Source: Salinivirgaceae bacterium
GTDB taxonomy: Bacteria; Bacteroidota; Bacteroidia; Bacteroidales; SZUA-534
Direction: 5' to 3'
DNA length: 64,000 nucleotides
Assembly (NCBI GenBank): GCA_017557605.1
Contig: JAFYYJ010000079.1
Location: 25,499-89,498 of the forward strand
Of this stretch, positions 9,809 through 39,295 are shown piece by piece. A program made the position numbers and the translations under genes. Below the pieces are notes generated by a model. That model did not search any database. It worked only from the letters and a program-made list of their open reading frames with translations, and was not told where the DNA came from. The first letter of the stretch is position 1; every line of letters begins with the position of its first letter.

Positions 9809-11323
9809 CTATTGATGTGCTTCTCGGAGCAAATCATTAACTGTCTTCACTGGGTTGAATGTGCTAGCCGGAACCTCAACAAACAAGGTAATCCAATCGC
9901 TCATTGCGCCATTCCACAAGCCTGGCAGCTCAAGGGCGCGCACCGTTTTACCCTCGATGCTCTTACTGCTGATAAAGCCCGTCTGCTGGTCGACATAACG
10001 CGGAAGGTCGAACTTGTTGCCTTTGTAATCAACCGTTGAGCAAACCAAATCAACAGGGTTGAAATGTGTGGCCTGAGCCATTACATCTTTCTTATCGTCA
10101 GGTATTTGTGTGCTTTCAAGAATCTGCAGCTGCACCGAGCCGTCGACACCTTTTACCCAATATGGACCACCACCAGGTTCACCCTCATTGATAACCATTC
10201 CGCAAACACGAATCGGGCGGTCAAGCTTTGCACGAAGGAAGTCAATCTTCTGATTATCAGAGAACAACGGATATTCAGCTGGTGGAAGGATTTGCAGTTT
10301 TGCCTTTACAAACGATTCTATCTCCTGAATCAGCGCATCAGAAACGCCTTCATCCATTTTGCGCAGATACTCATGAATCCGTGCCTGATTATGCAGCAAC
10401 ATTCCTGCAATAGCCTTCTTATATTGCACTGTATCAGCCTTTTTACGGTCTTGCACCACATTATCGATATTCTTCACAAAAATCAAATCGGCATCAATCT
10501 GGCTCAGATTGGCTATCAGCGCGCCATGCCCACCCGGACGGAAAACCAACCCACCGTCAGGAGTGTGAACCGGATTATTATTTTCATCAACAGCAACAGT
10601 GTCAGTTTCAGGCTTTTGCACACTGAACGACACTTCGTAATTGCAATTGAATTTCTTGCTATAGAACGACAGCACTTCTTTCAACTTGTTCTCAAACAAC
10701 TCCTTATGCGATTCAGAAACTGTGAAATGCAAATAAGCGGTGCCGTTGGTTGAAGCGTATGAGGCAGCCTCAATCAGATGCTCCTCAAACGGTGTAATAC
10801 AGCCATAATCGGTTCGGTGGAACTTCAACAATCCTTTTGGCAATTTGCCATAATTCAAACCTTCCTCAGTGAGAATGGCTTTGAGCAACTGACCTATCTG
10901 TTTGTTTTTCAACAATTCTTCAATCGATGTACCGCGCTTTTTCAAAACATCTTGCAAATCGTCGTAGAAAGCAAACTTTGCGATATTGTTGCACAAATCA
11001 GCTATCGCACTGTCGCTCATAGCCTTATCGTAATCTTGCGGACCTTTGTAAGAGTCCATTACCTCAAATAGTTTTTTGAACATACGCGAAGCCGCTCCTG
11101 AAGCCGGTACAAATTTCACCTTCTTCGCCTTCGACGCCTCATACAATGTCACATAATCGAGTTTTCGGCCTTCCGACAAACATTTGATGCCATTCTTAGC
11201 CGTTGCCGGCGCGATAATTTGCAACGGCTTGAAACCTTTAACAAACTTTCTAACTTGTTCGTCCACATCACGTGACTCCAACCCGTGAGCCTTGATTGAT
11301 GCTAATTCTTGTTGGTTATACAT
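9809..11323 (-). CDS. DUF4301-like protein (possible nucleotidyltransferase fold)
   Basis: 504 aa. ASGAASRMFK and RPGGHGAL motifs resemble sugar-1-phosphate nucleotidyltransferase loops. The DUF4301 name is from memory. Confidence 0.55.
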   Translation of the reverse strand: MYNQQELASIKAHGLESRDVDEQVRKFVKGFKPLQIIAPATAKNGIKCLSEGRKLDYVTLYEASKAKKVKFVPASGAASRMFKKLFEVMDSYKGPQDYDKAMSDSAIADLCNNIAKFAFYDDLQDVLKKRGTSIEELLKNKQIGQLLKAILTEEGLNYGKLPKGLLKFHRTDYGCITPFEEHLIEAASYASTNGTAYLHFTVSESHKELFENKLKEVLSFYSKKFNCNYEVSFSVQKPETDTVAVDENNNPVHTPDGGLVFRPGGHGALIANLSQIDADLIFVKNIDNVVQDRKKADTVQYKKAIAGMLLHNQARIHEYLRKMDEGVSDALIQEIESFVKAKLQILPPAEYPLFSDNQKIDFLRAKLDRPIRVCGMVINEGEPGGGPYWVKGVDGSVQLQILESTQIPDDKKDVMAQATHFNPVDLVCSTVDYKGNKFDLPRYVDQQTGFISSKSIEGKTVRALELPGLWNGAMSDWITLFVEVPASTFNPVKTVNDLLREAHQ

Positions 11324-31210: not shown

Positions 31211-33178
31211 ATGCCTTGCGCCGCCAAACCCGAACTACTGCTGCCTGTTGGCAACATTGAAAGCCTATATGCCGCGCTTGAGGGCGGTGCCGACGCTATC
31301 TATTTGGGACTTAAGGCTTTCAATGCCCGCGGACGCGCCTCAAATTTCACAAACTCGCAATTTGCAGCCATTTGCCAACTTGCCGCACAAAAGCATGTAA
31401 AAGTGTACGTTACGCTCAACACCGTCATAAAAAACAACGAACTGCCAGATTTGCTCGATACGCTGCAATTCTTGTCGGAACAACGGATTGCGGGCGTCAT
31501 TATTCAGGATTGGGGTGTTTTCAGCCTGATGCGGCGGTATTTTCCGAAACTTGTGGCGCACGCTAGCACACAAATGGTCAACCACAACTCTGTTGGCGCA
31601 AACCACTGCCAACAAATTGGTTTTAAACGTGTTGTACTTGCCCGCGAACTGACAATCAAAGAGTTGCAACTAATTCACCAACGCACCAATATCGAAACCG
31701 AAGTGTTTGTTCACGGTGCGCTATGTTATTCGGTATCAGGACTTTGCCTGTTCAGCAGCTATTTGGGCGGTGCCGGTGCCAACCGCGGACTCTGCACTCA
31801 GCCGTGCCGCCGGTTCTACAACTGTCAAGGACAAAAACGCACCTTCTTCAGCATGAAGGATAACCAACTGATTGACAAGATTAAAGACCTTGCACAAATG
31901 GGTGTTTCGTCGCTCAAAGTGGAAGGACGGCTCAAGTCGGGTGAGTATGTTTACACAGTAGCGCAAGCCTACCGCAAAGTCATTGATGATGAAATGGTTA
32001 TCGATTCGGTTGACGATTTAAGCCGCCCGAAAACACAATGGTTTATGGGCCGCAGCATTGCCGAGTCGATTGCCGACAACCCGAACACGGGTCTATTGAT
32101 TGGCAAAGTCACTGATTGTCATGACGGTACGATTGTTTTCACTACCAACATTGAGTTGTCCAAAGGCAACCGTATGCGCATTCGTACCGATGCCGACACC
32201 GACCAGAACGCCTTTGTACTCGACAACTTCCGTGTTGTTGACGGTGTTTGCACCGCAAAAGGCTTCCGAGGCAACGCCACCGCCGGCACCGACATCTACC
32301 TGACCGCTTTCCGCAATCAAAAATTCGGAACCGAACTGCCAACCTCCGGCCGCCACGACGTACGGATGCCACTGGCAATGAAGAAAAACATAATTGGCAA
32401 TATCCGCAAACAACTGACAGCCAAGCCGAAATCCGCAACCATTGTGCGAATTGATAACCTTGATTGGATGCAATGTGCGGCACTGCAAAAAGCCGACATT
32501 GTGGTTTTGTCGCTGCCGATGCTCGAGTGGCAGAACTTCTTGACTACAAACAAGATAAATGGCTCAATGCTGCAAAAAATATGGTTTGAATTGCCTCCGT
32601 TTGTGAGCGAGACGCAAATTGAGCGCGTCAGAAAATTTTGCTCCGCATTGGCACAAAAAGGAGTTAATCGTTTTGTTTTGAGCCATTTGTCACAAAGCGC
32701 AATGTTGCCGCCACATAGCCGTTTTGCCACCAACGAAGCGGTTTACGCCTACAACGATGCCGCCGCACAGTGGCTCAAACAACAAGGCGCCGAGTGGTTT
32801 TGCAGCCCTGCGGAAAACGAGTACGAGAACCTACTCACCGGAGCTTGCCGCGAGGCTGTGATTCCCGTCTATTTCCGCCCGCGATTGTTCACCTCACGAA
32901 TGCCCATAAAATTGTCAACAAACCAGTTCTCCGACGAGCGTAAAAACCGCTACCAGCGCCACCGCGTGAATGGTCTGACAATTATCACGCCAGAGCAACC
33001 AGTCTGCATCACACAGTATGCCAACAAGTTGCGCGGCAAAGGCTTCGGTCGGTTTCTAATCGATTTAACCTTCGAACCAACCGACAACACCCACCTTACC
33101 CGTCTGCTGAAACTGCTCGCCACTTCGGAAGGCATTCAGGGAACATCAGCGTTCAATTTTAAAAAGGGATTGAGATAA
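31211..33178 (+). CDS. U32-family peptidase-like protein
   Basis: PELLLPVGNIESLYAALEGGADAIYLG, YVTLNT and ALCYSVSGLCLFSSYLGGAGANRGLCTQPCRR motifs are typical of the U32 family. Confidence 0.8.
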   Translation: MPCAAKPELLLPVGNIESLYAALEGGADAIYLGLKAFNARGRASNFTNSQFAAICQLAAQKHVKVYVTLNTVIKNNELPDLLDTLQFLSEQRIAGVIIQDWGVFSLMRRYFPKLVAHASTQMVNHNSVGANHCQQIGFKRVVLARELTIKELQLIHQRTNIETEVFVHGALCYSVSGLCLFSSYLGGAGANRGLCTQPCRRFYNCQGQKRTFFSMKDNQLIDKIKDLAQMGVSSLKVEGRLKSGEYVYTVAQAYRKVIDDEMVIDSVDDLSRPKTQWFMGRSIAESIADNPNTGLLIGKVTDCHDGTIVFTTNIELSKGNRMRIRTDADTDQNAFVLDNFRVVDGVCTAKGFRGNATAGTDIYLTAFRNQKFGTELPTSGRHDVRMPLAMKKNIIGNIRKQLTAKPKSATIVRIDNLDWMQCAALQKADIVVLSLPMLEWQNFLTTNKINGSMLQKIWFELPPFVSETQIERVRKFCSALAQKGVNRFVLSHLSQSAMLPPHSRFATNEAVYAYNDAAAQWLKQQGAEWFCSPAENEYENLLTGACREAVIPVYFRPRLFTSRMPIKLSTNQFSDERKNRYQRHRVNGLTIITPEQPVCITQYANKLRGKGFGRFLIDLTFEPTDNTHLTRLLKLLATSEGIQGTSAFNFKKGLR

Positions 33179-33180
33179 TC

Positions 33181-34341
33181 TCACCTATTTCCCTTTGCCC
33201 GATTGTGCGTTTTGCAGAGCATCTGGCAATTTTTGATGTCGGTTGCTCCGCCACGGCTCCACGCTGTAACGTGGTCGGCGTCCATCTCTTTGAGTTGCCA
33301 AATTTTGGTTTTGTTATTGGTGTCCGATAATGCGCAAAGCGGACAGTTGCTTATGCCTTTTTCCTTTGCGTCGGCGGTTTGCTTTGCATATACACTTTTT
33401 ATTACGCTCGGCTCAAATAATCTGATATTCAACAGACTCTTATCAACCTCGCCTCCTAAAATATACTCGAAAATTCCCTTCTTGTCCTCAACGTAATCAT
33501 CGGCCATAAGAGTTTGAACACGCTCCGAAACTTTTGCTGGATTGTAGGCATTCTTGTGATAAAGTTCGTACATACGCCCCCACTCCAAACCACACATACT
33601 ACTTTCCACATCACTGAAAACTGATGATACCCAATTTATTACGGCATTGAAATACAACTTTAATTCGTTGATATTGTTGTCGTAACGATGCTGACTCATA
33701 TAACCGCTAACATCGTTGCTTTTGCTAACCCACTGCAACGCACGCTCAAGAATCTCTTGCCGCTTAACATCTCCTTTAATGTAAGCTTTCCATTTTGAGA
33801 CATTTGCGTTTTGTGAATTGCTAAACTCCTCTTTTGCAAGCGTTACAAATGGCCCTGAAAATATGGCGTTTAACTTTTCTTGCTCGTTAAGCGGCACGCC
33901 GACAATATTTATCGTTTTGAACCACTCTTTTATCTCTACTTCTGTTCCTTCGCATTCGTAAACTAGCAATTTGGTTTGCATAATCATTTCTTGCAGATTT
34001 GTTGCCAAACCGCTGAAATACTGCTCCATACCATTGATTTTTATGGCGAAATTTCCTTTTACAAAACGTCCGAGACTCGTTATTCGCTGCTGACCATCAA
34101 GCACTTCCAATTGGCCGCCATCAACCTTATTAAAGTATATTAAACCTAACGGATAACCTTTCAAAACCGATTCAATCACTGCCACATCTTTTTTGCCGTC
34201 GGCATAGATGTAATTGCGCTGATATTCAGGCTGAATTGTCAATCTACCCGAAAGTCCGAACAAACCTTTTCCTTCATATTCATTGTAAACAAATCCGTTA
34301 CAAATTTCCTCAATCGTGTATTGTTTTAATTCGGTTATCAT
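33181..34341 (-). CDS. DUF262 (ParB-like nuclease superfamily) protein with a C-terminal HNH endonuclease module
   Basis: [11 protein letters not shown] and DGQQRITSL (DUF262 signature). [23 protein letters not shown]-terminus CPLC...[32 protein letters not shown] (HNH). Lower GC than neighbours. Confidence 0.8.
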
Positions 34342-34358
34342 AGCGTTAAAATTTTGAT

Positions 34359-35492
34359 TTATTGTTTTTTACGAATCAATATTTTTGCATAGCAACTTAT
34401 CAAACGACCTGTTTCGTCTCTATAACATAGTTTACCACGACGAAAACCTTTATCTTCTTTGAATAAGCGCTTACAATCATCTGCCGACAGATTTGCGCTA
34501 ATGCCGTACGATATTCCTAATTCGCCACCATTACCAATTCCAACAATCTCAAATTGTTCAGGGCAATATTTTTCCAAAAATGTAATAGGCACCCCCATAA
34601 CACCATCATAATCAGACGGAATCGCGTCGGTATATGGTACCTCAATGGCGTCATAATTTTCATAATGAAAATACTTTCCACCTCGAACTTCTTTATGACT
34701 GCTAAATTTTATATTATCAGCCATACTCATCAATTGTAACGGTTGGTGACGGCGACCGTGGTCAATATTAGTAAACCAACAGGAAGCAACATTTGATAAT
34801 GAATCATTATCCTCGTTGGTTGGATTGGTATAAAACCACATTCCACCGCTCCATTCTGTTCGTCCCGCCCAAATTCTATTTGCTTTAATAAGAGGAAAAA
34901 CTTCTTTGTATGAAATACAGTTTTTGTTACCAATAATCAAAAATCTTTTATCTGTTTCCACTAACCACGCTAAAAACTCGCGAAACAGAGAAAATGGCGG
35001 ATTGGTTACGATTATGTCTGCTTCATCACGTAACAGTTTAACTTCATCGCTTCGGAAATCACCATCACCTTCAAGATACTGCCATTGCAAATCGTCGATG
35101 TCGATTTTTCCATTTGCATTAGTATCGTGGTCAAGCACAAATATTTTGCCGCAACGTTTCGATTTGTCAAGGTTGAAAAGAGGATTTTCGGTTTCAAAAA
35201 GTGTTGGCTGCCAATCGGTTTTATACTTTTTGCTTTCAACGGCGAAACTTGTGCTGATGAGTTTCTTTAATCCAAAATTTTCAAAATTTTGAGCGAAAAA
35301 CTTTGTAAAGTTGCTCCATTCAGGGTCATCGCACGGAAGTAAAATGGTTTTGCCACGAAACACATCAGGATTGTACTCCAAATAAGCATTTACTTCCTTC
35401 TGAATATCAGGATATTGTGTATAAAACTCATCATTTTGGGCTTTTTTGGCCACAACCAAGTTTGTATGCGCCATAGTGTTTAACTTGTGCAT
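34359..35492 (-). CDS. N6-adenine DNA methyltransferase (EcoRI-methylase-like family)
   Basis: [20 protein letters not shown] (NPPF motif IV). N-terminus [11 protein letters not shown] is typical of the EcoRI-methylase-type family as I recall it. 17-nt gap to the downstream nuclease gene. Start is ambiguous: GTG 35507, ATG 35492 or ATG 35474. Confidence 0.75.
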
Positions 35493-35547
35493 TGCACCAT
35501 TAAACACTTTGAAATCAGGCTATAAGAAAGGTGCGTACCTTCCTACT

Positions 35548-35719
35548 CGCGTTCACGGGGAAGCCTGAGAAGAAACCCCGCCCACACCGTATAGTCTGGC
35601 CGCACCAAGCGGTACAGACTACTACACAGTGTGGAAAGGGCAACTCAAAGCCACCCGTGAACAATCAGCCTATTTCGGTTAAAAGAAATAGTTTCTCAGG
35701 CTTTTTCTTTTTGAACGCG
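35548..35719 (-). ncRNA. candidate structured RNA / 5' leader upstream of the MTase-nuclease pair (strand uncertain)
   Basis: Nested perfect helices: 35548-35555/35712-35719 (8 bp); 35561-35571/35693-35703 (11 bp); 35670-35676/35685-35691 (7 bp); composite hairpin 35582-35587/35629-35634 + 35592-35598/35615-35621 + 35600-35603/35609-35612. Alternative 9-bp pairing 35551-35559/35654-35662. No plausible coding potential. Minus strand was chosen from gene context. A U-tract after 35703 on plus leaves a plus-strand sRNA possible. Confidence 0.4.
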
Positions 35720-35780
35720 AATAACAGTCAATGCTGATTAATAATATGTTATACTCTCGCAAAATGCGGAAGCAATGAAA

Positions 35781-35788
35781 CAAAGATA
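35781..35788 (-). promoter_or_regulatory. possible -7 promoter box (TATCTTTG on minus) upstream of the structured element and MTase
   Basis: CAAAGATA on plus. This is the only TAnnTTTG match between the SNF2 stop (35830) and the MTase start. It would give a leader of about 270 nt containing the structured element. Confidence 0.3.
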
Positions 35789-35829
35789 AAAAAATGTTGG
35801 CTGACGGAATAAGTGGAAACAGGAAAAAA

Positions 35830-38751
35830 CTAATCAAACAATTCCATAATTTTCTCGGGCGAGAGATTCTTCAGTGGATTGTCGTTCGTTACAATTCCCG
35901 CCAAATCGTTTTTGTGATTTTGCAAGTTGATGATTTTTTCCTCAAGCGTATCGGCGGTTATAAACTTGTAAACAAACACGTTACGTTCCTGTCCGATACG
36001 ATAGGCTCTGTCAATAGCCTGATTTTCAACCGCCGGATTCCACCACGGGTCAAGAATGAAGACATAATCGGCTGAGGTAAGATTGATGCCGACGCCACCG
36101 GCCTTAAGCGATATTAAAAACACCTTTATATCGTTGTCAGTCTGGAATTTACGAATAACATCCTCACGGTTTTGTGTGTCGCCGGTAAGCATGGTAAACC
36201 CTATTTGGCGCTCCGTCAAATACTGCTCATAAAGCTCCAGATATTTTACAAACGAGCTGAAAACAAGCACTTTATGGTCTTCAGAAATGATTGTTTCCAG
36301 AACACGCGTAACCTCGTCAAATTTGGCCGAAGGCTCGTCAAAACCGGCTAATTTCGGGTGACAGGCAATCTGTCTCAACCGCATCAGCGACTTCAATACC
36401 AAAGCAGAGGTCTGCAAATCGCGCTGACCGCCAATATGTTGCAACAATTCATTGCGCATCTCTGATTTTTTCGCCTCGTAAAGCTGCTGCTGCTCGCGCT
36501 CCATGGTGCAGACGCGAATCTGCTCGGTTTTGGGCGGCAAATCGCTGGCAACCTCATTTTTAGTGCGCCGCAAGATAAAAGGCTCTATCATCGCTTGCAG
36601 TTGCGAGGCTCGATTACCATGCGGATTTCGTTCAATATAAGCAACATACTGCGATTTAAAATACTGCAAACTGCCAAGAAGTCCGGGATTCACAAAATTC
36701 ATCTGCGCCCACAAATCCGTCAGACTGTTTTCGACCGGCGTACCAGTCAGAATCAGCTTGTATTGCGAATGCAACTGCATGATTGACTGATAGTTTTTTG
36801 ATGTCGGATTCTTTATTGCCTGGCTTTCGTCGAGGATGATGTAATAGAACTGATAGCTGCCAAGCAACTCCACATCGTTGCGGGCAAGGCCGTAAGTTGT
36901 AATCACAATGTCGTAGGAGTTAAACACCGATGCGTTGTGAGCCCGGCTGTTGCCCAAATGTGGCAAAACACGCAGTTGCGGCGCGAACTTGTACACCTCA
37001 TGCAACCAGTTATGAATCAGCGACAAAGGCATTACAATCAAACTCGTGGGCCGATGCTGGGTTACGGACGGCTGCGGTGTGTCGAACAACGAAAGCTGGC
37101 CGGTTTTAGGAGGCTCAATGGTTGCGTCTGTTAACATATCCGACTGAGCGTCAAGCAATAAGGCAAGAGTTTGCAGGGTTTTACCAAGACCCATATCATC
37201 GGCCAGACAGCCACCAAAGTTGTTGGCTTTCAGCTGTTTCATCCAGTAATAGCCGGCAAGCTGATAAGGGCGCAATGTGGCGTTCAAACCTTGGGGCTTC
37301 TGAATTTTGGCGAAGTTGTTGGCATCGAACATTTTACACATCCGGTCGGCCTCATCGGAAACAATACCCGACTGGCGAATCAAGCCAAACATGTTCTTCC
37401 CAATCCGCATCTCGCTGCCCGCGCAAGTGCTATGGTAAAAAAGCGCCTGAAAACGCGAAAACCACTCATCGGGCAAAATGACAATAGTGCCGTCGGGCAA
37501 GGCGTACTCCCTGATATTGTGCAAGATATTATGACGCAGACGCACGAATTTTATCGAAAAGCCATTCAACTCAACAGCTCCATACAAGTCGAACCAATCG
37601 TTGCTAAGCTGCGCTTTCAGATTCAGCTCGATACGCCCAACGTAGTATTTCTGCTCGTAGAAACTTTGTTTTACGGTGAAACCCGAATTGGAAATGACAT
37701 CAGCCTTTTGATTTAACATGCTGATTATGTTATAGAACCGCGCGTCCTGTGCGTCCACGTCATTGGCTGGCGCATAATAATATATGCCGTCGGACGAAAC
37801 GAATCCTATTTCAGCAAGGCGGTCGGCGTATTGACGCTCCAAATCTTTCCGCCGCAATGTTTTGATAAACTGCACATTATCGCCTTCGTGCAGAAAATCG
37901 ACAAAAGCCCGCTCGCGGCTCGACGGCAAGACGGAATTGCTGCCATAGGCGAACTTCAAAACAAGCACAGGCCGGCCTTGTAGGTCTTCTTCAAGATTAA
38001 GCTGAGGTACAGGCGGCTCATTGTTTACCATAACATCGAAGCCAGTGGCGCGCACCTTGTAGTTTTTCACCACATTCAGTATAAACTTCTCAAAATAAAC
38101 AAGTTCGGTTTCTTTTCGAATGTGAATGAAATCGTTTTTCAGAAAAGGCTCGAATTTCTTGCTGTCAATGTCATCGAATCGATATAGTTCCTTGTTAATC
38201 ACCACATTACACGGTTCTTTATCGGTAATCACCATTGCTGTTTTGCCCTTCAGCTTGTCGTAATGGTCGCCATGGTCAATGGCAATGCGATAGCGGATGC
38301 CGTTCTCGTTGCGGTCGAAAAGGAAAAGAATGTGCGATTTCCCCTCAGCCACAGTCAGTTCGTTTTCGATATACATCTGCTCATACTTGAAATCCTTGAA
38401 AAAGAGGCGGATTTTGTGAGCGATGATTATCGACAGCATTTTTTTGAACCGTTGTTCAAGGTAAGGCCTAATGTGTGTCTCTACAAACTGCTTGTCGACA
38501 TGGCGCAAAAACTCGTGAGGTGGCTCCTTCGAGAACAACCGTGCAATGTAAATGTCATCAATAGCGGCGGTGTATTTCATCAGCTCGCGGTAATCGTCGC
38601 AAAAGCCTTCAACTTCCTGAATATTAATTGGTGAGGCTTTATCGATTACGGAATAGAACGACTCGCCCGAACTTGGCGTTATGACATACGGGATGAGCGT
38701 CACGCCAAATTTGCGATGATGAGTAACCGCTACTATCAGCTGCTTAGGCAT
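35830..38751 (-). CDS. SNF2-family DEAD/DEAH-box helicase
   Basis: LRPYQLAGYYWM, CLADDMGLGKTLQT, DESQAIKN, and helicase-C motifs (LISLKAGGVGINLTSADYVFILDPWWNPAVENQAIDRAYRIGQ). The ~480-aa N-terminal region is of unknown function. Confidence 0.85.
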   Translation of the reverse strand: MPKQLIVAVTHHRKFGVTLIPYVITPSSGESFYSVIDKASPINIQEVEGFCDDYRELMKYTAAIDDIYIARLFSKEPPHEFLRHVDKQFVETHIRPYLEQRFKKMLSIIIAHKIRLFFKDFKYEQMYIENELTVAEGKSHILFLFDRNENGIRYRIAIDHGDHYDKLKGKTAMVITDKEPCNVVINKELYRFDDIDSKKFEPFLKNDFIHIRKETELVYFEKFILNVVKNYKVRATGFDVMVNNEPPVPQLNLEEDLQGRPVLVLKFAYGSNSVLPSSRERAFVDFLHEGDNVQFIKTLRRKDLERQYADRLAEIGFVSSDGIYYYAPANDVDAQDARFYNIISMLNQKADVISNSGFTVKQSFYEQKYYVGRIELNLKAQLSNDWFDLYGAVELNGFSIKFVRLRHNILHNIREYALPDGTIVILPDEWFSRFQALFYHSTCAGSEMRIGKNMFGLIRQSGIVSDEADRMCKMFDANNFAKIQKPQGLNATLRPYQLAGYYWMKQLKANNFGGCLADDMGLGKTLQTLALLLDAQSDMLTDATIEPPKTGQLSLFDTPQPSVTQHRPTSLIVMPLSLIHNWLHEVYKFAPQLRVLPHLGNSRAHNASVFNSYDIVITTYGLARNDVELLGSYQFYYIILDESQAIKNPTSKNYQSIMQLHSQYKLILTGTPVENSLTDLWAQMNFVNPGLLGSLQYFKSQYVAYIERNPHGNRASQLQAMIEPFILRRTKNEVASDLPPKTEQIRVCTMEREQQQLYEAKKSEMRNELLQHIGGQRDLQTSALVLKSLMRLRQIACHPKLAGFDEPSAKFDEVTRVLETIISEDHKVLVFSSFVKYLELYEQYLTERQIGFTMLTGDTQNREDVIRKFQTDNDIKVFLISLKAGGVGINLTSADYVFILDPWWNPAVENQAIDRAYRIGQERNVFVYKFITADTLEEKIINLQNHKNDLAGIVTNDNPLKNLSPEKIMELFD

Positions 38752-39116: not shown

Positions 39117-39295
39117 ATTATGATATTTACAACTTAAAAAAATCATCAGTCTGTCTGCCAGAAACTTTTCGGAATTAGAAAAAGAAGCTCTGGCAGAGCA
39201 ACCTGCAAAGTGGCGAAGATAGACAAATTGAGCGTTCTGCAACAAAAAAAGAGGCCTTGCGAAGCCTCTTTTTATATTTTAGGTGTGATTGGAAA

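Follow-up and report, generated by a model that had tools for sequence, protein, structure and literature searches.

We think it quite probable that the window (the whole stretch of 64,000 nucleotides analyzed here, from a Salinivirgaceae bacterium) carries a mobile cassette of about 2.6 kb, a restriction-modification (R-M) system of the BanLI family, in which specificity lies in the methylase and the nuclease is a sequence-blind effector. Two intact, co-oriented genes, encoding first the methylase (M) and then the nuclease (R), sit between convergent U32 and SNF2 genes, as follows:

31211..33178, + strand: U32-family gene, a flank outside the system, with its C-terminus intact
33179..33180, no strand: right-hand junction, 2 nt separating the nuclease stop from the convergent U32 stop (TAA-TC-TCA)
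33181..34341, - strand: DUF262 (ParB/GmrS-like)-helical-HNH nuclease, 386 aa (Pfam GmrSD_N and HNH; PADLOC; R.BanLI)
34342..34358, - strand: 17-nt M-R spacer between the methylase and nuclease genes
34359..35474, - strand: N6-adenine DNA methyltransferase of the EcoRI_methylase family, 371 aa (PF13651, PADLOC, alignments to M.BanLI and M.EcoRI)
35475..35800, - strand: conserved leader of about 320 nt, 5' of the methylase and within the mobile unit
35781..35788, - strand: TATCTTTG, a candidate -7 promoter element that fits TAnnTTTG, at the 5' edge of the leader
35830..38751, - strand: SNF2 helicase, a flank outside the system, adjoining U32 in cassette-free relatives

The first-pass annotation of this DNA had described two co-oriented genes with a 17-nt gap, and a nuclease stop 2 nt from the U32 stop with no terminator between them; both descriptions hold (no terminator-like site was found in 33000-36000). 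It had also taken the pair for a low-G+C insertion. The contrast in composition is real, with G+C at 0.395 in the cassette (0.373 in M, 0.408 in R) versus 0.496 and 0.463 in the left and right flanks and 0.461 over the window, although its figure of 57% for the U32 gene was too high (0.499). The insertion itself is proven by relatives without the cassette: at loci L178-L181, found via SNF2 homologues, only 4-7 nt separate SNF2 from U32, and the synteny to either side is identical. (A candidate empty site reached via U32 homologues was rejected; its synteny differs, with SpoIIE instead of SNF2 downstream of U32.) SNF2 was likewise rejected as a component of the system, because the same neighbours are kept in relatives that lack the cassette; its PADLOC matches to DpdE and ZorD reflect generic helicase similarity.

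The cassette is a horizontally acquired, mobile low-G+C insertion. Together with its leader of about 320 nt it occurs in at least four chromosomal contexts among close relatives, and the M-R pair is also found on plasmids and in phages. No integrase or transposase, as the annotation had said, lies within about 10 kb (judged from the window's open reading frames and from gene calls at the syntenic locus L005), and a search at the cassette for target-site duplications or terminal inverted repeats gave short, chance-level matches only. Nor does the neighbourhood form the three-gene operon of Menshen (NsnABC): no NsnB- or NsnC-like gene is among the neighbours of the nuclease gene, which are the methylase, U32 and SNF2, and the PADLOC NsnA profile matches the nuclease only partially (E=9.6e-28).

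The leader probably combines a promoter with a structured 5' UTR. Copies with 91-94% identity are found in L005/L006 and, in another chromosomal context, in L008-L011, and the RNA fold scores z=-7.9 for the sense and -6.3 for the antisense strand. A consensus fold from five sequences contains 95 pairs, 7 of them keeping their pairing through two-sided changes; a comparison with Rfam gave no meaningful family match. TAnnTTTG is the -7 promoter consensus of the Bacteroidetes, and a motif of this kind is kept in four of the five leader versions (window, L005, L008, L182), being apparently shifted in L185. The two genes are probably co-transcribed; in other family members M and R abut or overlap by a few bases. 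Behind the nuclease stop, the spacer of L005, L182, L183 and L185 is longer and contains a hairpin, followed by a T-run in L005, L183 and L185 but not in L182. The window has no such spacer, and the spacer and terminator are missing from L186/L187 as well.

The methylase belongs to a well-defined family. Its longest open reading frame is 34359..35507 (-), with a GTG start and a further possible start at 35492, but homologues favour the ATG at 35474 (371 aa, MAHTN...). It matches EcoRI_methylase (PF13651) over its full length (E=1.4e-115) and the PADLOC model MTase_II PDLC03297 (E=7.5e-80), and it aligns over its full length with M.BanLI (40% identity, E=3e-72) and with M.EcoRI (47% identity over aligned columns). 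The NPPF motif from which an N6-adenine methyltransferase had been proposed is in place. Sequence and profile searches of the PDB with the methylase yielded EF-hand noise only.

34992..35003, - strand: NPPF catalytic motif, residues 158-161, invariant in all alignments

The nuclease had been described as a DUF262 protein with a complete C-terminal HNH module, and this too is borne out by Pfam, with GmrSD_N/DUF262 at residues 35-161 (E=3.5e-20) and HNH PF01844 at residues 345-386 (E=8.8e-8):

33859..34239, - strand: DUF262/GmrSD_N domain, residues 35-161 (Pfam; motifs invariant)
34216-34224, - strand: YQR motif, residues 40-42, in the DUF262 domain
34084-34098, - strand: DGQQR motif, residues 82-86, in the DUF262 domain
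33184..33345, - strand: CxxC zinc-finger and HNH nuclease module, residues 333-386 (PF01844)

Pfam reports no DUF1524 in this protein, whose C-terminal domain is PF01844 HNH (also HNH_5), and no helicase or ResIII match. The motifs of the HNH module are present as CPLC at 333-336, DH at 356-357 and HN at 379-380. The catalytic residues, whose degeneracy would have counted against the annotation's reading, are not degenerate, because Q41, R42, D82-R86, C333, C336, D356, H357, N371, C376 and N380 are invariant in the alignments. Full-length homology extends to R.BanLI (43% identity, E=8e-99), and PADLOC identifies the nuclease as REase_II PDLC03418 (E=2.6e-88, positions 12-371 of 372). The Type II label that the nuclease carries in REBASE and PADLOC implies that it recognizes its target autonomously, and counts against a reading that places specificity in the methylase. 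Sequence and profile searches of the PDB gave marginal matches only: an HNH endonuclease (4h9d), a CW_7-like repeat, and BrxU (7p9k), where the weak match covers the same DUF262 motifs. An AlphaFold2 model built from close homologues only has a mean pLDDT of 59, below 50 in the DUF262 and HNH domains, too poor for a view of nucleotide pocket or interfaces.

By its sequence the pair is thus a BanLI-type R-M cassette of a family already catalogued, and its architecture is not unusual. BanLI, from Bifidobacterium animalis subsp. lactis, has been studied experimentally. The cloned M.BanLI methylates RTC(m6A)GG, that is, a single methyltransferase modifying one strand of an asymmetric site; a clone with both R and M restricts weakly (efficiency of plating about 0.1, 1.8-fold transformation effect); and the authors took BanLI to be a Type IIS system that is incomplete (PMC3990576). 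A 2026 paper links the REBASE BanLI REase (RTCAGG) to a gene for a "DUF262 domain-containing protein." Our locus L004 is the BanLI locus: it was retrieved with the primer words of PMC3990576, all three matching exactly, its protein masses are exactly the values given there (41.68 and 43.55 kDa), and its pair has the same Pfam architecture as the window pair. The literature yielded no biochemical characterization of any other DUF262-HNH Type II enzyme.

The first-pass annotation rightly saw a restriction-modification module, as the full-length homology to BanLI and the PADLOC Type II matches of both proteins attest, but was mistaken in calling the architecture unusual and in stating that DUF262 nucleases usually have no cognate methylase as a partner. 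The pairing of EcoRI_methylase with DUF262-HNH is a large one, with 416 representatives of 50%-identity clusters (E<=1e-30), and is modelled in PADLOC. Of 142 loci, 136 (~96%) have M upstream of R in the same orientation, and in 120 the two genes are directly adjacent. Co-occurrence, proposed as a check, far exceeds chance: among 72,556 plasmids, R is on 45, M on 70, and both are on at least 41, versus about 0.04 expected. The pair is seen in Bacteroidota, Bacillota, Actinomycetota and Pseudomonadota, and also on Enterococcus faecium megaplasmids, on small plasmids of lactic acid bacteria, and in phages. Intact nucleases without a methylase do occur (L082, L090, L102, L107, L133), as do loci with disrupted methylases. 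The methylase-less nucleases may be assembly snapshots of decaying loci, and it need not follow that R alone is harmless.

What is of interest in this family is the behaviour of two segments of the methylase, presumed from their position in a gamma-class methyltransferase and from their shuffling to be target-recognition domains:

34779..34862, - strand: variable module 1 (var1), residues ~205-232, type "A," presumed target-recognition segment
34389..34538, - strand: variable module 2 (var2), residues ~313-362, type "a," presumed target-recognition segment

Among close relatives whose catalytic cores are 85-90% identical, var1 is only 6-28% identical. The window's var1 type is shared with L182 (which is why its shortness was rejected as a disabling deletion) and gives no blastn alignment to L005, L008 or L185. 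Its var2 is 93% identical to that of L008, identical to that of L186/L187, and about 20% identical to those of L005 (C+b), a phage copy and a Moraxella copy. The exchanged modules have sharp boundaries, are unrelated in sequence and length, and combine freely between lineages: 18 var1 types and 42 var2 types form 71 combinations in 90 pairs. Across relatives the nuclease hardly changes. One cluster of 30 nucleases pairs with 24 module combinations, nucleases as much as 97-98% identical go with different combinations, and var1 and var2 can both be unrelated between cassettes whose nucleases are 92-98% identical. The window (A+a) and L186 (B+a) share a locus and have nucleases 98% identical, and var1 alone differs.

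When near-identical nucleases were compared, no segment was found to co-vary with the methylase modules. Their substitutions cluster at residues 320-350, but this region was rejected as a hidden specificity element: the segment is identical between L008 (B+a) and L185 (C+c), and overall the identity across 320-350 is independent of the identity of var1 and var2 (Spearman 0.004 and 0.07). That modules shuffle while near-identical nucleases stay argues that the nuclease itself does not read sequence. The comparison suggests that the methylase decides what gets cut and that the nuclease lacks a sequence specificity of its own, which would be atypical for an enzyme filed as Type II. The label "non-canonical" given to the module at first pass thus fails for the architecture, which is common, and survives for the nuclease.

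In the mechanism we propose, the promoter-bearing, structured leader would drive the M-R operon, the gamma-class N6-adenine methyltransferase would mark host DNA, and the nuclease, with its nucleotide-binding DUF262 domain, helical middle and HNH, would attack DNA without the mark. Target specificity would reside in the two exchangeable methylase segments, the nuclease being a constant, sequence-blind effector. The nuclease might act in complex with the methylase, by a Type III-like logic, or DUF262 might read m6A, with nucleotide hydrolysis switching the HNH, by a logic like that of SspE or GmrSD. (DUF262 has been described as an NTP-driven modification sensor; PMC9646914, PMC12065111, PMC12707154.) Extended to the BanLI family as a whole, the reading is a tentative one, which might hold almost as easily as it might fail. 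The family would then be a distinct R-M class, with a sequence-blind ParB-like NTPase-HNH nuclease directed by a gamma-class m6A methylase, either in a complex like that of Mod and Res or by reading m6A as SspE reads phosphorothioate. On the same tentative footing, populations would reprogram specificity by exchange of the two modules while keeping the nuclease.

It is unlikely, by comparison, that the pair is a classical Type II system (IIP or IIS) whose nuclease reads its own sequence, with the variable segments a tolerant surface and most members isoschizomers. The PADLOC REase_II and MTase_II models do match the pair, REBASE assigns RTCAGG to the BanLI REase gene, and the nuclease keeps 60-73% identity across phyla, as can happen in isoschizomer families. 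Combinatorial, sharp-edged module exchange, however, is how target-recognition domains behave in Type I, III and IIG enzymes, and M.EcoRI (GAATTC) and M.BanLI (RTCAGG) differ in specificity on a common scaffold in which the var1 and var2 segments differ. The single BanLI methyltransferase also poses a problem for it, since one-strand methylation combined with classical Type IIS cutting of both strands would leave one daughter duplex unprotected after replication. Far less likely still is that the window copy, as opposed to the methylase-directed system we favour, is an inactive or decaying remnant, persisting through chance or only as an addiction element and serving no defence. Such a remnant would fit the missing spacer and terminator behind the nuclease (in the window and L186/L187), the weakness of BanLI itself as a restrictor, and the disrupted methylases at some loci, but both window reading frames are intact with invariant catalytic residues, relatives at 98% identity retain both genes, and the recent exchange in which the window and L186 came to differ in var1 alone suggests that specificity is still under selection. 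Hardly any credence is due to a Type IV nuclease (GmrSD/BrxU-like) attacking modified foreign DNA beside a functionally unrelated methylase: the N-terminal DUF262 is common to GmrSD, BrxU and SspE, and some database relatives are named "McrA" or "GmrSD restriction endonuclease domain-containing," but M and R are linked at ~96% of loci in a fixed order and often overlap, the nuclease lacks DUF1524 and is at least about 200 aa shorter than BrxU (587 aa), and pre-methylation by M.BanLI increased, not lowered, transformation efficiency (PMC3990576).

For the genome itself the outcome is a routine annotation: it has acquired an R-M cassette whose family is already catalogued. The BanLI-type pair is nevertheless a very common two-gene system whose filing as Type II stands on weak experimental grounds. 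If its nuclease does take its direction from the methylase and is itself blind to sequence, the system would amount to a compact new design for programmable restriction, and would extend the principle of DUF262 as a "modification reader" from phosphorothioate and hypermodified cytosine to plain m6A. It would also explain both the one-strand methylation by BanLI and its weak activity in dam+ E. coli. Pairs that differ by a module swap, such as the window and L186, are ready natural experiments.

Comparison with known systems places the cassette closest to BanLI, which has the same order, with an EcoRI_methylase-family methyltransferase first and a DUF262+HNH nuclease (about 370-390 aa) second, and which was likewise acquired horizontally, with G+C below its host's. 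BanLI differs in having an integrase gene directly upstream, whereas the window cassette has no recombinase nearby, and the structured leader of about 320 nt is specific to the Salinivirgaceae-lineage cassette. Since the variable segments of the methylases are unrelated and the identities to BanLI modest, the recognition sequence in the window is probably a different one. The EcoRI system, whose methylase is the archetype of PF13651, shares the whole methylase scaffold including NPPF, M.EcoRI having its own var1 and a minimal var2; it differs in its classical EcoRI nuclease, which has neither DUF262 nor HNH, and in its gene order of R then M.

Type III systems (Mod/Res) resemble the window pair as a functional analogy only, in the order of methylase then nuclease and, on the reading favoured here, in a specificity carried by swappable methylase recognition domains beside a conserved nuclease subunit. 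The one-strand methylation of an asymmetric site by BanLI recalls Mod enzymes, and the Type III restriction subunit, like the window nuclease, has a nucleotide-dependent domain. Res, however, combines an SF2 helicase-like ATPase with a PD-(D/E)XK nuclease, and Mod belongs to the beta-class methyltransferases, whereas the window pair has a gamma-class methyltransferase, no helicase domain and no homology to Mod or Res. GmrSD and BrxU share with the window nuclease an N-terminal ParB-like DUF262 domain (QR, DGQQR) and a C-terminal nuclease of His-Me/HNH type. They are larger, carry DUF1524, act alone and attack modified cytosines, while the window nuclease is coupled to an m6A methylase and has an HNH of the classical kind (PF01844), along with a CxxC zinc finger. 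As in the window, the DUF262 nuclease of SspABCD-SspE has as its partner a DNA-modification module of separate proteins, which marks a single strand; in that system four proteins make the mark, a phosphorothioate, and the nuclease has DUF1524 as its catalytic domain. SspE reads the phosphorothioate mark rather than a sequence of its own, and GTP hydrolysis switches its nuclease (PMC9646914). SspE is thereby the best precedent for a sequence-blind DUF262 effector.

The insertion between the U32-family gene and the SNF2 gene, which the first-pass annotation had described as a two-gene unit, is borne out by two intact, co-oriented ORFs, a methylase (M) and a nuclease (R), separated by a spacer of 17 nt. 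The features of this cassette are as follows.

35475-35800, minus strand: leader, about 320 nt long, preceding the methylase gene
34359..35474, minus strand: methylase gene, the upstream gene of the pair, 371 aa, with an ATG start favoured by homologs
Methylase residues 158-161: NPPF motif
33181..34341, minus strand: nuclease gene, the downstream gene, 386 aa
Nuclease residues 35-161: GmrSD_N/DUF262 domain (Pfam, E=3.5e-20)
Nuclease residues 345-386: HNH module (Pfam, E=8.8e-8)
Nuclease motifs: YQR40-42, DGQQR82-86, CPLC333-336, DH356-357 and HN379-380

Alternative methylase starts are possible at 35492 and 35507. The Pfam family EcoRI_methylase (PF13651) covers the methylase end to end (E=1.4e-115). 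Alignments to distant homologs show no variation at the catalytic and zinc-binding positions of the nuclease, and the degenerate catalytic residues for which the annotation had left room are not seen. Two further resemblances were observed. A moderately variable N-terminal insert of the methylase has an EF-hand-like calcium-binding loop motif (residues 117-128, window 35091-35126), which is kept in Bacteroidota copies and gives weak profile matches to polcalcin and a calcium-dependent kinase (E=0.3-0.9). The profile of the helical middle of the nuclease (residues 242-298, 33448-33618) has a weak likeness to CW_7 repeats in a phage lysozyme (PDB 5i8l, E=8.6e-5), probably a generic three-helix similarity.

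The locus belongs to a known, catalogued restriction-modification (R-M) family, a modest result in itself. The REBASE-derived PADLOC models REase_II PDLC03418 and MTase_II match the nuclease (E=2.6e-88, positions 12-371 of 372) and the methylase (E=7.5e-80), and a 2026 paper equates the Type II REase that REBASE lists for Bifidobacterium animalis subsp. lactis, with specificity RTCAGG, to a gene annotated "DUF262 domain-containing protein." In that organism's BanLI system, M.BanLI (41.68 kDa) has been aligned with M.EcoRI and, cloned in E. coli, modifies just one of the two strands, giving RTC(m6A)GG; R.BanLI (43.5 kDa), cloned with M, lowers P1vir plating about 10-fold, and pre-methylation of DNA by M.BanLI raises transformation 1.8-fold (PMC3990576). 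Searching with the genome-specific parts of the primers from PMC3990576 retrieved a BanLI locus (L004) in Bifidobacterium ruminantium that matches 3/3 primer words exactly, encodes proteins of 41.68 and 43.55 kDa and has the same Pfam architecture as the window pair. Both window proteins align end to end with their counterparts there, with identities of 43% for the nuclease (E=8e-99) and 40% for the methylase (E=3e-72). The family is large: a word-indexed search with the nuclease gave at least 8000 matches, and an exhaustive search yielded, at E<=1e-30, 416 representatives of clusters formed at 50% identity, mostly 365-420 aa long and matching end to end. The premise that pairing a methyltransferase with a DUF262-HNH nuclease is unusual was mistaken, so the annotation's interpretation is supported in part; its observation is confirmed, and of the findings that it said would count against it, neither a lack of co-occurrence of M and R nor degenerate catalytic residues was seen.

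That co-occurrence was measured in 142 loci encoding a nuclease relative with enough upstream sequence. The methylase core lies directly upstream on the same strand in 120 of these, and in another 16 unrelated cargo ORFs or a second copy of the methylase (L122) separate the two, placing it 1.1-3.7 kb upstream. The junction therefore tolerates or attracts insertions, such cargo being present in about 11% of loci. Several cargo genes are defence- or phage-associated. The cargo includes a 283-aa Bro-N ORF (L139, L131, L132, L137, L140, L141), Abi_C (L034), DUF2130 (L037) and Fic with a 201-aa ORF (L039); L054 and L057 also carry cargo. The methylase is missing in the remaining 6 loci. An IS with an rve transposase interrupts it in L102 (2502-4004), leaving a C-terminal remnant, and only a D12-class methylase fragment precedes the nuclease in L082; an intact nuclease without an intact methylase is found in these two and in L090, L107 and L133. 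If such loci are genuine, cells tolerate the nuclease when its methylase is absent. Among 72,556 plasmid records, 45 carry the nuclease and 70 an EcoRI-family methylase. Comparison of the two match tables places both on at least 41 plasmids, nearly always adjacent, against a chance expectation of about 0.04. The methylase-only plasmids carry more distant family members; one is a genuine EcoRI system, with classical EcoRI as its nuclease and with R preceding M.

Insertion at this site is evident from four cassette-free contigs (L178-L181), in which SNF2 (66-67% identical to that of the window) converges directly on U32, with a gap of 7 or 4 nt. These share with the window the order RecQ, sigma-70, FecR, SUI1, SNF2, then U32, pseudouridine synthase, Por-tail protein and PASTA protein, so in the window some 2.6 kb of DNA has been added between the two stop codons. 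The U32 C-terminus is unaltered, its stop lies 2 nt from the convergent nuclease stop, and no terminator-like site was found between the two. Among named proteins, the nearest relatives of the nuclease, U32 and SNF2 come from MAGs of Salinivirgaceae, a family of Bacteroidales. The contrast in G+C first estimated by hand is real (39.5% in the cassette versus 49.6% and 46.3% in the flanks), although the 57% given for U32 was too high (measured, 49.9%). Other features of the flanks were observed. A DUF6588 gene between FecR and SUI1 in cassette-free relatives (L178 6312-7499; L180 7362-8453) is absent from the window (about 39117-39295) and from L005, a related cassette locus. The window SNF2 (35830-38751) scores highly against the PADLOC DpdE and ZorD models over the helicase core only; it and its neighbour SUI1 are kept in cassette-free relatives, and it is probably a housekeeping RapA-like protein rather than a defence gene.

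The cassette is mobile. Homology to copies elsewhere extends from about 35,750-35,810 to about 33,169-33,181, and close relatives hold it in at least four chromosomal contexts: between SNF2 and U32 (window, L005/L006, L186/L187), between SpoIIE and U32 (L182/L183), between a queuosine-synthesis gene and a patatin gene (L008-L011, an NCBI Salinivirgaceae MAG), and between SASA and NTP_transf_4 (L185, whose nuclease shares 95% identity with that of the window). In none of the four does a recombinase gene adjoin the cassette, and no flanking direct or inverted repeats rise above chance level. The U32 3' end is a synteny breakpoint (window 33178; L012 9968; L015 9965; L182 6329), and SpoIIE takes the place of SNF2 on its downstream side in relatives whose U32 is 80-90% identical. 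The cassette adjoins U32 in both arrangements, reflecting either repeated insertion there or rearrangement at the cassette. Tandem TTAGGAG/TTAGGAT-like repeats lie just 3' of U32 in L005 (about 11162-11293), L012 (9969-10060) and L182; this spacer is missing in the window and L186/L187, where the nuclease stop abuts that of U32. More widely, plasmids from many phyla carry relatives of the pair, as do a cultured Flavobacterium phage and numerous viral contigs in IMG/VR, all vehicles for cell-to-cell transfer. Examples include large Enterococcus faecium plasmids of 173-246 kb from livestock, food, water and human sources (H8-H16, H53-H61), small cryptic plasmids of lactic acid bacteria (e.g. H18, Pediococcus, 9 kb) and a 9-kb Moraxella osloensis plasmid (H1), where the pair may be plasmid-stabilising or defence cargo.

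The leader travels with the cassette. Copies lie at L005 8437-8762, L008 1140-1466, L182 3478-3801 and L185 3440-3751. Between cassettes that sit in different chromosomal contexts its identity is 91-94%, a conservation greater than that of the methylase gene. It starts with TATCTTTG, a putative promoter element that fits the Bacteroidetes -7 consensus. Its folding is far above shuffled controls (z=-7.9), and its sole variable block shows compensatory changes across a long hairpin, with 7 pairs that keep pairing despite changes on both sides (among five sequences only). No Rfam family matches. The leader probably serves the cassette as a cis-regulatory 5' UTR, and may act as a regulatory RNA of the R-M operon.

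The methylase evolves differently from the nuclease. The window and L005 share an insertion site and flanking proteins 88-99% identical, yet identity between the two is 84% for the nucleases and just 65% for the methylases. Two segments, var1 (residues ~205-232) and var2 (~313-362), break a conserved methylase scaffold and, by comparison of alleles, behave as exchangeable modules. Seven closely related cassettes contain three var1 types (A-C) and three var2 types (a-c) in five combinations: A+a (window), B+a (L186, L187, L008), C+b (L005), C+c (L185) and A+b' (L182). Their nucleases, 80-98% identical, do not track the modules; the window's nearest relative, L186, has an identical junction and a 98% identical nuclease, and differs essentially in var1 only. 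A set of 90 non-redundant pairs, drawn from metagenomes and viral contigs, combines 18 types of var1 with 42 types of var2 in 71 ways, 24 of which partner one cluster of 30 nucleases (single linkage, >=80% identity). How similar two nucleases are does not correlate with how similar their partners' var1 or var2 segments are (Spearman 0.04 and 0.10), and in four of five independent system pairs with nucleases at least 92% identical the modules are unrelated. M.EcoRI and M.BanLI, whose known specificities differ, likewise have a common scaffold and differ in the var1/var2 segments. Substitutions between near-identical nucleases concentrate at residues 320-350; co-variation of this stretch with var2 was tested and not found. 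The comparative evidence suggests that a constant effector, the family nuclease, serves methylases whose specificities are shuffled, an arrangement not described as far as the searched literature shows, and directly testable with natural allele pairs. Autonomous recognition of sequence by the nuclease, as the Type II label implies, would be possible if the variable segments do not set specificity, and we regard it as unlikely.

For a constant effector, we propose that a leader-driven operon would express a methylase whose var1 and var2 segments define the site at which host adenines are marked, and that the nuclease would destroy unmarked DNA without reading the target site itself. Two ways of doing so both fit. 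The methylase and nuclease might form a complex in which the methylase supplies recognition, which would also explain why BanLI's single methylase marks only one strand of an asymmetric site. Alternatively, the DUF262 domain might read the mark and gate the HNH module through nucleotide hydrolysis. The first follows the logic of Type III Mod/Res enzymes, in which recognition comes from the methylase; for the second, mark reading and gating by nucleotide hydrolysis have been demonstrated in SspE with phosphorothioate (PMC9646914), and the same mode has been proposed for DUF262 proteins generally (PMC12707154, PMC12065111).
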